64,000 nucleotides of DNA from a phage: the NCBI GenBank assembly GCA_014685065.1, contig GCA_014685065.1_3930.1. One strand, given 5' to 3'. The notes under the pieces are model-generated. The model saw nothing but the letters and a program-made list of their open reading frames with translations. It ran no database searches and was not told the DNA's origin. Every line of letters starts with the position of its first letter. Positions within the stretch are counted from its first letter, which is position 1. Position numbers and translations under genes: made by a program. Shown piece after piece: positions 23,392 through 30,986 of the stretch.

Positions 23392-25008
23392 TCAACGTCT
23401 AAGCCCCTCATATGGGTTTCCTCTCACTAAATCTGTGTGAGCACCCATTGATGGTGGCTTGAATAATTTAACTTCGTTAAGACTGTTGAAAGCATCACTG
23501 GTAGCATCCACTTGGTCATCTTTAGTTTTACCGTCACCACAAAAGCCTTCAAGTTCTTGAAAGTAAGCTTCATTCCAACTACCTCTCAAGACTTTTACAA
23601 GTCCAGCTTCAGAAGCAGCAGAAAATCCCGCAAAGCGGGTAACTTTATCTTTATTTGTTGGTTTGGCTCTTGCTCGATAACCTTTCTCGGCAAGTTTCCT
23701 GATGAGGGATGTTGCGTAGGATTTACCAGCAGCGCCTGGGTCTTGAGGGATAAAAATACCAGTTCGCTTACCGTCACTTTCAGCAGTCAAATTAATTTGT
23801 GTTTCGACTCCAGAGGGTCTATCTCTAAATCTTACTACATCAATGATATAATAGCAACCGTCTTTTTTAGATTTACCCATCTTAACACCTGCTGTCCAGT
23901 CTGGATTAGGGTTAATCTCAGATGGTAAAGTTGCTGCTAAGTCCCATGCTCTAACATCAAATACATCTTCTGGGAGTGAATCAACAATTTCACACCATTG
24001 TCTTTGCCAATAGTTTGAACCTTCTGCACGAGCCTTCCAGTTACCGAAACGAAGTCTTGCAACGTTTACAGGAGTGTTGTTTTCCAACTTACCACGGTAC
24101 TTAGGCTCTAAGAAGTCAAGGATTGGGTTATCATCAATCGTACCAGAAATAAAGGTGTATGTTTGAGGAATCTCAAGGGGGAACATTTCAAGAATCTTGT
24201 CTCTCTCCCAATCAGAAACCATCACGCCATCGTGCATTACATACCAACGAATACGACCACATTTTTCAGGGTCTGGGTAGCCTTCTTCATCTAAGAATGG
24301 CTCTACCCAATCGTAAATAAAGTGGTCTCTGTCTGGGTTCATGGAAATCTTCATGTATGAATCGCCTTCAGCACCAGAACGTAGACGGGTTTGTAGGTAT
24401 GAAATCTGTGAAGCAGAGAAGTGTGTACCTTCGTCAAAGTAAATAGCTGAGTATTCAATACCCTGATGACCTTCAGCGTGCTTTTCAAGTTCTAGGTAGG
24501 TAAACTTGATAGTTGCCCCAGAAGGGAATGTGATAGTCATTTTCTGCTCGTGAGGAATCCCACCAAACTTACCAAATAGTTTCTTTGCAGCAGGCCATAA
24601 ACCACCTTGTAACTGTGTTGTATTTCGACGGAAATATACAGCATTATAGTTAGGGTCTTCAATAAATCTTAAAGAGTCCATTAACAATGCGGCAGTCTTA
24701 CCAGCACCAGCAGCACCACCATAGAGAACCAAGTCAGCATTAGTATTTAAAAAGACCTCTTGAGAACCCGGCTGAGGGGCTACATAGTTCTTATCAGTCA
24801 TCAATTTAAAGATAAGGCGAACTTGGTCTGGTGTGTATCTTAATAAAGTCAGAATTTGAGTTGGAAGGAATTTAGAGGGGTCTTTACCGAATGATTTAAT
24901 AATTTCTTTTACTTCATCAGAAAGCCCCAACTCTCCAGCTAGGACTTTCCTAACATCTTCCACTCGCTTCTGCTTAACAGCATTTAAGTCCATTAAGCGC
25001 CTCCGCAA
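23392..25008 (-). CDS. terminase large subunit
   Basis: 538 aa; Walker A (LVLYGGAAGAGKTAALL), Walker B-like (IYFDEGTHF) and C-terminal nuclease acidic motifs. Confidence 0.85.
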   Translation of the reverse strand: MRRRLMDLNAVKQKRVEDVRKVLAGELGLSDEVKEIIKSFGKDPSKFLPTQILTLLRYTPDQVRLIFKLMTDKNYVAPQPGSQEVFLNTNADLVLYGGAAGAGKTAALLMDSLRFIEDPNYNAVYFRRNTTQLQGGLWPAAKKLFGKFGGIPHEQKMTITFPSGATIKFTYLELEKHAEGHQGIEYSAIYFDEGTHFSASQISYLQTRLRSGAEGDSYMKISMNPDRDHFIYDWVEPFLDEEGYPDPEKCGRIRWYVMHDGVMVSDWERDKILEMFPLEIPQTYTFISGTIDDNPILDFLEPKYRGKLENNTPVNVARLRFGNWKARAEGSNYWQRQWCEIVDSLPEDVFDVRAWDLAATLPSEINPNPDWTAGVKMGKSKKDGCYYIIDVVRFRDRPSGVETQINLTAESDGKRTGIFIPQDPGAAGKSYATSLIRKLAEKGYRARAKPTNKDKVTRFAGFSAASEAGLVKVLRGSWNEAYFQELEGFCGDGKTKDDQVDATSDAFNSLNEVKLFKPPSMGAHTDLVRGNPYEGLRR

Positions 25009-25611: not shown

Positions 25612-26346
25612 TTATTTCTGTAATGCGTTCTTCATTTCTGGTGTTGCAATAGTGTCAATTACACCAGTTTTACAGGCATCATCAAACCAGTCTGGTAAGA
25701 TACCTGCTAAGAACCCATTGATATTCGTTTTAAGGTACTCTGCAATAAGGGCAGCTTCTTCTTCAATCATCTGCACAACTTCATCTGCATAAGCTGTAAT
25801 CTTTGAGATACCTTCATTAATCTTACTGACAGCTTGGTTAGCTAAATCAGAAACAGTATCAAGACCCTTGTCAATAGCGTCTTGTAAGTCACTTAATACA
25901 TCGTTAACACTCTCTAGTGTACTGTTAATCGTATCAATAGCTTTTTGACCATATTCTGTAGCAACACCCATAATACCACTGAACGGTGTACAACCAACTT
26001 GTTCTCCTGCTGCACCCATAACATTGGAATATCCATTTGCTACCTGCATACGTGATGAAAACTCATCAATAGATTTTTGACCGTAGTCTGTCAGGGTCTT
26101 AGTAGTTGCTGTAGTGCTTGTAAGGCTTGTTGTAAAGCTGTTTAGAAGGACTGTTGTAAGTCCAGCAGCAACAAGTTTCTCCTGCATTGTAGGGTCTGTT
26201 ACAGAACTAATAGAGCTTACAAGTGATGTAGAAGCAGCTACGGTTCCACCGAGAACTGCTGCACCAGTAATAAGTGGGTTAGAAAACCCTTTACCGGTTT
26301 TTAAGAGATTAAAAATCTCCTTACCTTGTTCTGTCATCTCTTTCAT
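25612..26346 (-). CDS. hypothetical protein within tRNA cluster
   Basis: ORF track start 26409 overlaps tRNA-Phe; start moved to internal ATG (MKEMTEQ...); Ser/Thr-rich middle, helical C-terminus. Confidence 0.45.
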   Translation of the reverse strand: MKEMTEQGKEIFNLLKTGKGFSNPLITGAAVLGGTVAASTSLVSSISSVTDPTMQEKLVAAGLTTVLLNSFTTSLTSTTATTKTLTDYGQKSIDEFSSRMQVANGYSNVMGAAGEQVGCTPFSGIMGVATEYGQKAIDTINSTLESVNDVLSDLQDAIDKGLDTVSDLANQAVSKINEGISKITAYADEVVQMIEEEAALIAEYLKTNINGFLAGILPDWFDDACKTGVIDTIATPEMKNALQK

Positions 26347-26362
26347 TAAGCACCTTTGAAAT

Positions 26363-26439
26363 TGGTAGTCCAGTGGGATTTGAACCCTCTTCTCATGTTT
26401 TTCAGACACGCGCTTTAACCATATAAGCTACTTGGACTA
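26363..26439 (-). tRNA. tRNA-Phe (anticodon GAA)
   Basis: Acceptor TAGTCCA/TGGACTA, anticodon stem CGTGT/ACATG with loop CTGAAAA, T-loop TTCAAAT. Confidence 0.55.
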
Positions 26440-26797: not shown

Positions 26798-27355
26798 TTA
26801 CTTTCTCAGTGGATGAATAAAGAATGCCAACATAACTCTTTCCCTTGAGAATGCTCTTTCTTCTGGGACAACACTTTTTAGTTTCCATCCAATATAAATT
26901 CTCCAGTAAAACTGTTTACCAAAGACTTTAATTGATGGGATAAAAGCGAATAATCCCCAAGCATTACTGTTCCACATTAGGAGATAACCTGTCTGATTAT
27001 CTTCAGGGTCAGAACTTACGTTGATATTACCTTTCCACTTAGTAACATCTTTTACATCTCTTCCTAATACATGGTAAGAGAAGTTATAAGCTTTGTTTCT
27101 CCAGAGCCATCCGACTCTCTGCATGTAGACACCCAGCTTACCAATCTTTCTAATCTTAGCCCATCGTTCGATATGACCTTCGTCACCATCAATTGGATTG
27201 TCATATGTCTCCATCCATCTAAATCCGAAAGGTAAGTGGCCTTTCTTCTCACTGTAAAATGGAACTACGAAAGGTGCTAAGATAACTGCTAAGGTTGCTG
27301 CTAATGGTTCTAGCAAAGCTAGGAAAATCCATGAAGCATATTTTAAATATCTCAT
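26798..27355 (-). CDS. hypothetical membrane protein within tRNA cluster
   Basis: 185 aa; N-terminal hydrophobic segments, Trp-rich; sits exactly between two tRNAs. Confidence 0.5.
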   Translation of the reverse strand: MRYLKYASWIFLALLEPLAATLAVILAPFVVPFYSEKKGHLPFGFRWMETYDNPIDGDEGHIERWAKIRKIGKLGVYMQRVGWLWRNKAYNFSYHVLGRDVKDVTKWKGNINVSSDPEDNQTGYLLMWNSNAWGLFAFIPSIKVFGKQFYWRIYIGWKLKSVVPEERAFSRERVMLAFFIHPLRK

Positions 27356-28684: not shown

Positions 28685-28761
28685 GCTAACTATTTGGCAC
28701 ACCCTACAGGATTCGAACCTGTAACTAACGATTTAGAAGACCGTTGCTCTATCCAATTGAA
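28685..28761 (-). tRNA. tRNA-Arg (anticodon UCU)
   Basis: Acceptor GCACCCT/AGGGTGT, anticodon stem ACGGT/ATCGT, loop CTTCTAA; D-arm near-identical to tRNA-Arg(ACG). Confidence 0.65.
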
Positions 28762-29008
28762 CTAAGGGTGCATTAATCTTTAAAGACTCTCTTAGAAAGC
28801 CCTTAAAGATGCCCACCTTATTAATCATACCGTGGGCGAGTACGCCAAATTCTTTGATGAGGGATTGGAAGACCTCACTGGTGTTTAGCCTATCAAGCTA
28901 CTGCCAGAAAAACATTGTCGTTTGCATTTATTTTAAATTTGCAAAATAGACGCTACGCAACGAAAACTAAGGTTACTATAAAGTGGTCACATCTCAATGT
29001 CAACAACT

Positions 29009-29084
29009 TTATTGAAATTGGTACTGTGAGAAGGATTCGAACCTTCTGCCTTTCGGTTATCAGCCGAATGCACATCCATATGTG
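29009..29084 (-). tRNA. tRNA-Ile (anticodon GAU)
   Basis: Acceptor GCTGTGA/TCACAGT, D-stem GCAC/GTGC, anticodon stem TTCGG/CCGAA, loop CTGATAA, CCA encoded. Confidence 0.65.
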
Positions 29085-29087
29085 CTT

Positions 29088-29573
29088 TCACAGCATTGTT
29101 ACCCCTTCGTGTACCTCTCTGTGGCAATTTGCACACAGTAATACACACTTATCAACTTCAGACTTCATTACCTCTATAGAGAAGTGTTTTTGTCCTACTG
29201 TGAAGTCCTTTGTATTAGGGTCTAAGTGGTGAAACTCTAAAGCCTTTATGCACTTATTGTATCCACAAATTGAGCAACAACCACCTTTGTAATCAACTAA
29301 AACCCTCTTAAGTTTGTCACGAGACTTTTTAACGTGTTGTGACTTCGCTTTCTTTTCTTCATCGGGGTTTTTGTATTGTTTCAGAATACCATTTGAAATA
29401 CATTCATCACAATACTTTCTTGATTTTGGTGTTTGTTTTCCACATGAATGACAAGAGCCTTCTTGTCTTCTTTTTGGATGACTCTTGTTGTTTACCCTTG
29501 CAGCACAAGAGCGTGAACAATATTTTCCGCCTTTAACGGCTTTGTTGTCACAATCTTTATTAGCACAAAACAT
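29088..29573 (-). CDS. HNH homing endonuclease with N-terminal Cys-rich zinc-finger repeats
   Basis: C-terminal HNH motif (CCSICGYN...LEFHHLDP...CVLLCANCHREVH); four CxxC-type pairs N-terminally; ORF-track start at 29732 would overlap tRNA-Met so start set at MFCANKDC. Confidence 0.7.
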   Translation of the reverse strand: MFCANKDCDNKAVKGGKYCSRSCAARVNNKSHPKRRQEGSCHSCGKQTPKSRKYCDECISNGILKQYKNPDEEKKAKSQHVKKSRDKLKRVLVDYKGGCCSICGYNKCIKALEFHHLDPNTKDFTVGQKHFSIEVMKSEVDKCVLLCANCHREVHEGVTML

Positions 29574-29589
29574 AATATCACCAACGAAT

Positions 29590-29666
29590 TGGAGGTTCAG
29601 ATGGGAATCGAACCCACATTCATAGGGCTTATGAGACCCCTGCATTACCTTATCTGCGACTGAACC
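29590..29666 (-). tRNA. tRNA-Met (anticodon CAU; elongator vs initiator vs Ile2 unresolved)
   Basis: Acceptor GGTTCAG/CTGAACC, anticodon stem GGGGT/GCCCT with G-U ends, loop CTCATAA, T-loop TTCGATT. Confidence 0.6.
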
Positions 29667-29670
29667 ATAT

Positions 29671-29746
29671 TGGTAGAAGTGGAGGGATTCGAACCCATCG
29701 CCTGTCAGATTAAAAGTCTGCCGCATCACCATTCTGCTACACTTCC
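29671..29746 (-). tRNA. tRNA-Lys (anticodon UUU)
   Basis: Anticodon loop CTTTTAA, T-arm similar to tRNA-Lys(CUU), CCA encoded. Confidence 0.6.
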
Positions 29747-29752
29747 ATTAAA

Positions 29753-29894
29753 ATTATCTTTGTAGATAAGCTATCCAGACTTGCTTAAGGTCTGTAGCGA
29801 TGTGCCTTGTTGGGTTTAAATCTAGAATTTACCCTTTCACTCTTTGTGGTCGCATACTCACAGGTAAGCTTAATAACTTATCTACAAAGATAAT
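29753..29894 (-). repeat. perfect 18-bp inverted repeat pair flanking a 106-bp core (hairpin RNA or MITE-like insertion)
   Basis: ATTATCTTTGTAGATAAG at 29753-29770 and exact reverse complement at 29877-29894; core holds CAGAC-TTGCTTAAG-GTCTG hairpin. Confidence 0.5.
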
Positions 29895-29895
29895 T

Positions 29896-30028
29896 ACCAG
29901 ACCGTTGTTTATCATCTTAAGTGCTACCATTACACCAACTCGACATCTGCCGAGTGAAGGAATCGAACCTTCGCCTTTTCTTTACCGGAGAAATAGATTG
30001 TTTAAGTTTTGCTGTAAACGGTCTTCTG
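29896..30028 (-). repeat. spacer element copy a (CCAGACC...GGTCTTCTG family) containing tRNA-like T-arm and D-arm in permuted order
   Basis: Closing stem AGACCGTT/AACGGTCT; internal GGCGAAGG-TTCGATT-CCTTC T-arm-like hairpin followed by GAGTTGGTGTAATGGTAGCAC D-arm-like segment. Confidence 0.4.
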
Positions 30029-30040
30029 TAAATTTGTTGA

Positions 30041-30116
30041 GCCAGACCAAGTTTTAAATTTTCAAAATTAAATTGGCTTGAAATTTCATACATTCTTGCT
30101 GTATTTGGTCTTCTGC
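30041..30116 (-). repeat. spacer element copy b (CCAGACC...GGTCTTCTG family)
   Basis: GCCAGACCAAG...TTGGTCTTCTG closing inverted repeat; conserved ACAGCAAG box in minus sense. Confidence 0.4.
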
Positions 30117-30202
30117 TCCTTTAAAGAATACTCGTAAGAACCCTTTAAGGGAGGGGCTAAATAGCCCTCTCAAAACATCATCTTGAAATACTTATTATAA
30201 TT

Positions 30203-30849: not shown

Positions 30850-30929
30850 TGGTCTCCGTTGAAGGATTTGAACCCTCGACCCCTTGCTCCCAAAGCAAGT
30901 GCTGCTAAACCAAACTGAGCTAAACGGAG
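30850..30929 (-). tRNA. tRNA-Pro (anticodon UGG)
   Basis: Anticodon stem CTTGC/GCAAG, loop TTTGGGA; 3' half resembles bacterial tRNA-Pro (GGGGTCGAGGGTTCAAATCC); CCA encoded. Confidence 0.6.
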
Positions 30930-30954: not shown

Positions 30955-30986
30955 CACTTTAACATTATTTTTTAGTGGTTGTCAAG
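30955..30986 (-). promoter_or_regulatory. candidate sigma70-type promoter for the tRNA operon
   Basis: Minus-sense TTGACA-N17-TTAAAG with AT-rich upstream tract, ~25 nt before tRNA-Pro 5' end; AACCACT/AGTGGTT inverted repeat overlaps it. Confidence 0.35.

Follow-up and report, generated by a model that had tools for sequence, protein, structure and literature searches.

Several bacteriophages carry free-standing nuclease genes among their transfer RNA (tRNA) genes. In phage T4, segB lies between tRNA genes and is absent from close relatives, and its product causes preferential inheritance together with co-conversion of the neighbouring tRNA genes (PMC2330249). Cleavage and homing by SegB have been shown experimentally, the target being a T-psi-C motif with a preferred site in phage T2L's tRNA-Asn gene, and the segB messenger RNA (mRNA) is cut between its last sense codon and its stop codon by maturation of tRNA-Arg, which has been proposed to limit expression of the nuclease (PMC2330249). 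In phage T5, the HNH enzymes F-TflI, -II and -IV are encoded in the tRNA cluster (work of 2004, as cited in PMC2330249 and PMC5714182), and, in the account given by the former of these sources, expression control by processing has been proposed for the F-Tfl genes as well (PMC2330249). HNH genes have also been reported in tRNA clusters of mycobacteriophages and mycobacteria, where a role in spreading tRNA genes was suggested (PMC6409571, PMC6582537). In Felix O1, Whichard et al. (2010) counted six HNH genes, leaving junctions, tRNA allele and mobility unanalysed (PMC3185647). The subject of this paper is an HNH gene of this last kind, which lies between tRNA-Met and tRNA-Ile in a stretch of phage DNA of 64,000 nucleotides (nt) (contig GCA_014685065.1_3930.1, assembly GCA_014685065.1), referred to below as the window.

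Felix O1 ORF44 (NP_944863.2, "HNH endonuclease"), which is among these six genes, occupies the same tRNA-Met/tRNA-Ile locus, has an open reading frame (ORF) of 486 nt with the same 7-nt overlap with tRNA-Ile, and shares 85% nucleotide and approximately 80% amino-acid identity with the window gene. Judged by locus and identity, the window gene is the counterpart of this already annotated gene, although ORF44 belongs to a different clade of copies, at a synonymous divergence (dS) of about 0.5, while the window copy groups with those of KEP3, Henu11 and Henu12. SegB belongs to the GIY-YIG enzymes and shares neither sequence nor fold with the window protein, so that the resemblance between them is convergent; moreover, the activity, target and homing of SegB are known by experiment, whereas the window protein is known from its sequence and a structural model. 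T5-like phages carry relatives of the window protein, 30-40% identical, inside their tRNA arrays; the F-Tfl enzymes themselves are likened to it here by their description in the sources cited. The mycobacteriophage and mycobacterial reports, likewise compared by description, contain neither a stop codon inside a tRNA nor linkage to a tRNA allele (PMC6409571, PMC6582537).

In this paper we determine the empty and filled sites of the window gene, its movement among related phages, the conservation of its product and the position of its relatives with respect to tRNA genes. The original prediction for this locus, made from the sequence alone, was of an HNH homing endonuclease gene wedged between tRNA-Met and tRNA-Ile, with its stop inside the 5' end of tRNA-Ile, a setting for which T4 SegB and the T5 F-Tfl enzymes are established precedents. 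Our analysis indicates that the ORF is probably a mobile, free-standing HNH homing endonuclease gene of the Felix O1 ORF44 lineage. The general picture is unchanged by this, as the Felix O1 gene already has its annotation and it is textbook knowledge that tRNA clusters of phages harbour homing nucleases; what is added here are the exact empty and filled sites, a borrowed stop codon, a linked tRNA-Ile allele, a conversion tract of 600-650 bp and a family-wide tendency for stop codons to lie inside tRNAs.

Insertion of the HNH gene in an inter-tRNA spacer

The window derives from a member of the genus Felixounavirus (Felix O1-like myoviruses), and a 3-kb query around the locus matched 327 phage records, the top matches being Felixounaviruses of Escherichia, Salmonella and Shigella at 90-98% identity. 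Only 12 of these approximately 327 related records carry the HNH gene, which is sporadic among close relatives. One clade of copies, 97-99% identical to that of the window, is found in KEP3, Henu11 and Henu12, and a second, at 83-85% identity, in Felix O1, FO1a, garuso, Sl26, OPT-SAL01, L27, S.Kent 1-2-1 and MET-P1-301. In phages without the gene (ekra, REP5, skuden, LTH02 and SapYZU01) the gap between tRNA-Met and tRNA-Ile is 1-2 nt. Empty sites were read at the nucleotide level in REP5, skuden, ekra and Wc4 and in a multiple alignment, and the junction is CCTCCA-AA-GCTGTGA in REP5, CCTCCA-AT-GCTGTGA in skuden and CCTCCA-A-GCTGGTA in ekra, while the filled site of the window reads CCTCCA-AT-[insert]-AT-GCTGTGA. 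Against the empty site of skuden (CCA-AT-G1) the inserted segment measures 493 nt and extends, on the minus strand, over 29095..29587 or alternatively 29097-29589; since AT is found at either end, the position of the junction is uncertain by 2 nt. The left boundary of the insertion is formed in the alignment by the CCA end of tRNA-Met (29592-29590, minus strand). A 493-nt element has been inserted exactly in the 1-2-nt inter-tRNA spacer, and the gene is present or absent at an identical site in close relatives, as homing genes are.

The ORF occupies 29088..29573 on the minus strand and encodes 161 amino acids followed by a stop, with the ATG at 29573-29571 and the TGA at 29090-29088. Upstream lies tRNA-Met(CAT) at 29590..29666 and downstream tRNA-Ile(GAT) at 29019..29094, both predicted by ARAGORN and both intact, with Rfam tRNA scores of 54.3 and 60 bits, respectively, that are well over the gathering threshold of 29 bits. 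The sequence of tRNA-Met is the same or almost the same in phages with and without the HNH gene. Between tRNA-Met and the ATG there is a 16-nt leader (29574..29589, minus strand), found only in HNH-positive phages, which contains the Shine-Dalgarno-like sequence GGTGAT at 29582-29577, complementary to the 3' end of 16S ribosomal RNA. At its other end the ORF overlaps tRNA-Ile by 7 nt (29088..29094), as seen in the sequence, the ARAGORN prediction and the empty-site comparison. The 493-nt insert does not contain a stop codon of its own; its reading frame ends in ATG-CTG-TGA, built from the spacer and nucleotides 1-7 of tRNA-Ile, these seven nucleotides supplying one base of the ATG codon, the last sense codon CTG and the TGA. 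The stop codon therefore corresponds to nucleotides 5-7 of the tRNA, in the acceptor stem. The annotations of Felix O1 and garuso (garuso_99) show the same 7-nt overlap. A longer mechanical ORF of 214 amino acids (29088..29732) was rejected as the gene, as its first 53 codons cross tRNA-Met and tRNA-Lys, and the MxC...C motif is where every homolog starts.

The coordinates and arrangement originally predicted for the gene were correct, to which we add that the ORF and both flanking tRNAs are on the minus strand. The comparison with relatives lacking the gene, which had been proposed as a check, yields a precise 493-nt insertion in a 2-nt inter-tRNA spacer, and the alternative pattern, an ORF absent or frameshifted in all relatives, does not apply.

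The distribution of the gene also bears on a role in DNA packaging, in which the protein would assist the terminase in the manner of the HNH protein gp74 of phage HK97. The gene for the terminase large subunit (23392-25008) is indeed only about 4 kb from the HNH gene; the two are, however, not adjacent but separated by tRNA genes, the window protein differs in architecture by its two N-terminal zinc modules, and the HNH gene is missing in more than 95% of close relatives, which package normally. With neither group-wide conservation nor adjacency to the terminase, this candidate was rejected; the pattern of presence and absence effectively refutes it and leaves it almost no probability.

Horizontal exchange and the two tRNA-Ile alleles

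Identity profiles along the locus show that the gene and its surroundings have different histories. LTH02 is approximately 100% identical to the window on both sides of the locus, yet lacks the HNH gene and has a different tRNA-Ile allele (allele B, see below). Henu11, conversely, has an HNH gene 98% identical to that of the window in a backbone that is just 70-90% identical. In a three-way analysis, informative sites were defined as positions at which KEP3 (HNH-positive) and LTH02 (HNH-less) differ. The window is of the LTH02 type at 101 of 102 informative sites between 27652 and 29017, of the KEP3 type at 23 consecutive informative sites between 29027 and 29628, and of the LTH02 type again at 33 of the next 34 informative sites from 29668 onward. 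The donor-type, KEP3-like tract on the minus strand has minimal limits of 29027..29628 and maximal limits of 29018-29667, that is, 600-650 bp, and takes in the HNH gene, nearly the full body of tRNA-Ile and at most part of tRNA-Met. As is found for homing genes, horizontal movement is accompanied by a short donor-type tract, and the tract has the signature that double-strand-break repair from an HNH-positive donor would be expected to leave. Comparison of the sequences shows that the gene has been exchanged horizontally between divergent phages. That the insertion is recent, as was first suggested from the tight overlap, is supported by the precise insertion, the donor-type tract in an LTH02-like backbone and the 98% identical copy in a divergent phage.

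Two alleles of tRNA-Ile(GAU) occupy the one locus in the genus. They are identical at only 49 of 77 positions, and both fold as cloverleaves. Allele A, the window type, was found in 47 records and allele B in approximately 110, in each case at an identity of at least 95%. Every HNH-positive record (12 of 12) has allele A, while the gene is missing in approximately 35 allele-A records and in all records with allele B. The tRNA-Ile coordinates are 29019-29094 in the window, 1518-1593 in locus L002 and 1501-1576 in locus L007. The two alleles regain homology only at the T-loop and the 3' strand of the acceptor stem, and therefore the whole body of tRNA-Ile would have been co-converted. Allele A of the window has A8 where U8 is near-universal; in the homolog of this tRNA from Pectobacterium phage Wc4 the acceptor and T stems have changed in a compensatory manner, so that the allele-A tRNA-Ile looks functional. 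In the same reading frame allele B would read ATG-CTG-GTA-TAG and stop on tRNA positions 8-10, whereas the ORF on allele A of the window, with its A8, ends on the TGA three bases earlier. For the genomics of therapeutic phages, the presence or absence of the HNH gene and the tRNA-Ile allele are poor phylogenetic markers.

Two further features of the region were noted in these comparisons. A second mosaic patch lies at 30857-30926, in the region of tRNA-Pro, where 22 consecutive informative sites are of the KEP3 type and no nuclease gene is nearby. In Henu11 (L010) there are approximately 75 extra nt from tRNA-Lys(TTT) to tRNA-Met, absent from the window and from the other relatives.

The HNH protein and its family at tRNA genes

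The assignment of the ORF to the HNH endonucleases, as originally predicted, holds on the evidence of a family match, invariant HNH and Cys4 residues and a predicted fold. Among PHROG HNH families the protein matches phrog_2255 with E=1.6e-33, and approximately 2,500 relatives were found in 5.8 billion proteins, many of them with a precomputed match to Pfam PF01844 (HNH); a scan of NCBIfam with the HNH protein gave no match. Conservation was examined in an alignment of 33 homologs, 39-80% and mostly 40-50% identical to the query, since non-conserved motif residues would have spoken against an HNH enzyme. The catalytic and zinc residues are invariant: these are the clusters C3/C8/C19/C23 and C41/C44/C55/C58 and, in the HNH core, C100/C103, F114-H115-H116, K122, E139, K142-C143, C147/C150-H151 and E153, with N149 and H155 conserved in at least 90%. 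The HH motif with downstream Asn and His that marks the HNH superfamily is represented by H115/H116, N149, H151 and H155.

According to the alignment, amino acids 1-60 (29394-29573, minus strand) form two N-terminal Cys4 zinc modules, and the HNH (beta-beta-alpha-metal) domain, defined by alignment and model, spans amino acids 96-157 (29103-29288, minus strand), with a long helical linker between them. An AlphaFold model computed from the homolog alignment has a predicted local distance difference test (pLDDT) score of 91.9 and places a beta-beta-alpha element at residues 112-156, with strands at 112-116 and 143-147 and a helix at 148-156; together with the invariant C100/C103/C147/C150 (CxxC...CxxC) this predicted fold corresponds to the zinc-stabilised beta-beta-alpha type. 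The top matches of the model in the PDB, found with Foldseek at weak E-values of 0.016 or worse, are HNH domains, namely those of CBASS Cap5 (probability 0.98), the Gme HNH nicking endonuclease, T4 endonuclease VII, Cas9 and ZRANB3. A sequence search of the PDB was marginal (HNH of a group II intron maturase, E=0.06; McrA, 0.07) and confirms the class but nothing more. The N-terminal 67 amino acids gave sub-threshold Pfam hints of zinc-ribbon, treble-clef and TRASH domains (DZR, 0.015), and the N-terminus of homologs a sub-threshold match to DUF2116, "probable treble clef" (0.0025-0.0064). Because these matches are sub-threshold we refer to this part merely as Cys4 zinc modules, which presumably bind DNA. 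The FCSRSC motif is reminiscent of FCS/TRASH fingers, a likeness that finds no support at threshold.

Between the window and Felix O1 copies dS is 0.53 and the ratio of nonsynonymous to synonymous divergence (dN/dS) is 0.18, with similar figures for the N-terminal half and the HNH half, and across diverged copies dN/dS is approximately 0.15-0.19, which shows at the sequence level that the gene is intact and under purifying selection. Selection on the ORF over a dS of approximately 0.5 might also be expected of a domesticated nuclease, which the phage would keep not just for the spread of the gene itself but because array breaks help tRNA genes to be duplicated, lost or exchanged, for example in escaping host defences that target tRNAs. 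In the same niche, segmental amplification of anti-defence loci, among them tRNA-Tyr, is driven by the GIY-YIG enzyme SegB (PMC13096335), and tRNA content does vary around HNH genes, another HNH gene of Felix O1 lying at the place of the tRNA-Arg of the window. A selfish element that needs its activity to spread would, however, be under purifying selection too; no tandem amplification was seen at the locus, and retention in just 12 of approximately 327 related records is a better fit to a parasite. We therefore hold domestication to be improbable.

The association with tRNA genes extends to the family as a whole. Relatives of the protein were found by tblastn in 437 phage records, and we inspected the lineages represented by Klebsiella phage AmPh_EK80, Escherichia phage GreteKellenberger, Pseudomonas phages M5.1 and KIL3, Stenotrophomonas phage Mendera and Hafnia phage SarahDanielle. 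In all six the family member lies inside a tRNA array and on the strand of the tRNAs. Four of the annotated coding sequences overlap the next tRNA, by 1-39 nt; in AmPh_EK80 an unannotated match ends exactly where tRNA-Ala begins, and in GreteKellenberger a coding sequence, not a tRNA, lies downstream.

A larger set was taken from IMG/VR, in which the best 80 loci (L018-L097) gave 69 non-duplicates. A tRNA on the same strand follows the gene in 53 of the 69 loci, and in 29 of these 53 (55%) the stop codon is inside that tRNA, with six more ending within 10 nt of it. At eight loci the gene is antisense to the adjoining tRNAs yet still abuts them, and only about seven have no nearby tRNA. As a control we used the 99 non-HNH ORFs of at least 80 amino acids in the same loci; most end just short of a tRNA, 19 stopping 0-10 nt before it, and only three (3%) overlap one (29/53 versus 3/99, Fisher p=1.7e-13). 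After clustering at 70% identity the comparison is 11/41 versus 3/99 (p=8e-5). In 15 of the 29 overlapping cases the stop is a TAG from the conserved U8-A9-G10 (tRNA positions 8-10), and in two more it is a TAG at positions 9-11 in ARAGORN numbering. The most frequent immediate neighbour, by a wide margin, is tRNA-Asn(GTT), 16 times downstream and 16 times upstream in the 69 loci, which recalls the preferred site of SegB in a tRNA-Asn gene.

A literature search returned no specific prior description of HNH stop codons inside tRNAs; the arrangement of segB and tRNA-Arg in T4 is equivalent, and the likeness looks convergent. The family tendency is a modest generalisation, and it supports the older proposal that tRNA processing would limit the nuclease. 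The geometry may be a hallmark of function in this three-zinc HNH family, its ORFs being built to end on the universally conserved U8-A9-G10 (UAG), and not an accident of single loci, but this seems to us less likely than not. Were it so, maturation by ribonuclease P (RNase P) would turn every processed transcript into a non-stop mRNA. Such a brake on a toxic nuclease would be portable and independent of the host, and would act at any tRNA-tRNA junction that the element invaded. Taken with the bias toward tRNA boundaries, the antisense cases included, and toward tRNA-Asn, a true hallmark would further imply that the enzyme recognises generic features of tRNA genes, like SegB, and that such recognition evolved convergently in an unrelated nuclease fold.

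Some ARAGORN calls of tRNA-Asn in these loci, mostly just upstream of the HNH ORF, are unusually long at 87-89 nt: L019 1899-1985, L022 1814-1902, L030 1734-1820, L038 1578-1666, L048 261-349 and 1520-1608, L056 1247-1334, and L083 1459-1547.

Proposed expression and homing, and other features of the array

In the window ARAGORN predicts 26 tRNAs, all 26 on the minus strand in a single array. An internal promoter for the HNH gene was sought and the sole match (9/12) lies within the ORF, with none that is strong between tRNA-Met and the ATG; likewise, no minus-strand terminator was predicted within the tRNA-HNH unit. Candidate promoters were found before tRNA-Pro at 30956..30985 (minus strand; TTGACA-18-TAAAGT with TG) and, also upstream of tRNA-Pro, at 31076-31048, both by consensus match. 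Because promoter-like sites are no commoner across the region than in shuffled sequence (14 versus 14.9), promoters are given here as candidates only. The most economical reading of these sequence features is that a promoter upstream of tRNA-Pro would serve the tRNAs and the HNH gene together, in one transcript. Co-transcription with dependence on processing, which had also been suggested at the outset, is plausible, since the 16-nt leader is too short to hold a separate promoter and the prediction gave no terminator. A sigma-70-like match (TTGACA-17-TATAGT, 11/12, consensus match only) lies directly downstream of tRNA-Ile at 28975..29003 on the minus strand and probably starts the next transcription unit. 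Its position suggests one unit that ends at the HNH gene and tRNA-Ile and a next that starts at tRNA-Arg.

The homing cycle that we favour for this gene would run as follows. During co-infection the enzyme would cut or nick the allele that lacks the gene, at the tRNA-Met/tRNA-Ile junction or close to it, the site being split, and so protected, in HNH-positive genomes. Repair with the HNH-positive genome as template would copy in the gene and the adjoining body of tRNA-Ile, giving a co-conversion tract of approximately 600-650 bp. As for the target, the chances that it spans the tRNA-Met/tRNA-Ile junction appear evenly balanced. The gene, with no promoter of its own, would be transcribed within the tRNA precursor, and the RNase P cut at the 5' end of tRNA-Ile would sever the stop together with the last two codons, so that a non-stop mRNA would result; the amount of nuclease made would then be capped by tRNA maturation, as earlier proposed for T4 SegB. 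By analogy with that system we suggest, tentatively, that processing by RNase P restricts nuclease expression.

Several observations weigh against this account. Cleavage and homing are predictions for the window protein as for Felix O1 ORF44, and the effects of transcription and RNase P are deduced from geometry alone. On the window protein by itself PF01844 scores 14.1 bits (E=0.05), under the curated cutoff of 21.4; close homologs reach 21.6 (P0018) and 19.7 bits (P0012). The tract is lengthened by two single-nucleotide polymorphisms in tRNA-Met at which other HNH-less phages have the bases of the window, so that these variants may be LTH02's alone. Target-site immunity through the tRNA-Ile polymorphism was considered and rejected: the allele-A tRNA-Ile is 100% identical with and without the gene, so that no protection by target polymorphism is visible, and protection would therefore come from splitting of the site, or the target would lie elsewhere. 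Finally, Felixounavirus genomes are mosaic throughout, and because the region is mosaic elsewhere a short tract could also arise by ordinary homologous recombination.

On a rival view the gene would be an inactive relic or a passenger carried passively, its patchiness and its tract resulting from ordinary recombination at conserved tRNA crossover points and not from homing driven by the nuclease. The region has numerous small mosaic patches that have nothing to do with the HNH gene, such as the KEP3-type block at 30857-30926, and the cassette is flanked on both sides by conserved tRNA sequence. A relic would not, however, be expected to keep all its catalytic and zinc residues intact, with dN/dS of 0.15-0.19 among copies that have diverged deeply; the element is inserted precisely and never at another site, and hitch-hiking leaves unexplained why the family as a whole keeps to tRNA boundaries in phages that are unrelated. 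We consider a passenger unlikely, and regard the locus, read as a homing gene, as a clean case, found in nature and legible in public genomes, of intronless homing within an array of tRNA genes. Felixounaviruses would be a handy system for studying how such elements reshuffle phage tRNA repertoires, a question of rising interest as phage tRNAs counter tRNA-targeting defences.

Other parts of the array showed features of their own. The second HNH gene of Felix O1, ORF45 (L003 1192-1584), lies at the place of tRNA-Arg(TCT) of the window (28695-28771), and ARAGORN finds no tRNA-Arg at that place in Felix O1 or garuso (L001 958-1528). At this position a tRNA gene appears to be replaced in a second polymorphism of presence and absence that is linked to an HNH gene. 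From tRNA-Lys(TTT) to tRNA-Asp the window contains 457 nt (29747-30202) without a tRNA or a minus-strand ORF of at least 70 amino acids, and Rfam at the gathering threshold finds no tRNA there. At 29954-29974 the minus strand of this stretch holds a sequence that resembles a T arm, GCGAAGGTTCGATTCCTTCAC, and the counterpart of the stretch in REP5 bears odd annotations of a "tRNA-Thr" (131 nt) and a "tRNA-OTHER"; the stretch may be a decayed tRNA gene. Two more minus-strand ORFs lie within the array, at 25612-26409 (265 amino acids) and 26798-27355 (185 amino acids), with stops 1 nt and 8 nt, respectively, before the next tRNA. NCBIfam gave no family for either; LTH02 and SapYZU01 have both ORFs in conserved form, with annotations as hypothetical or membrane proteins.

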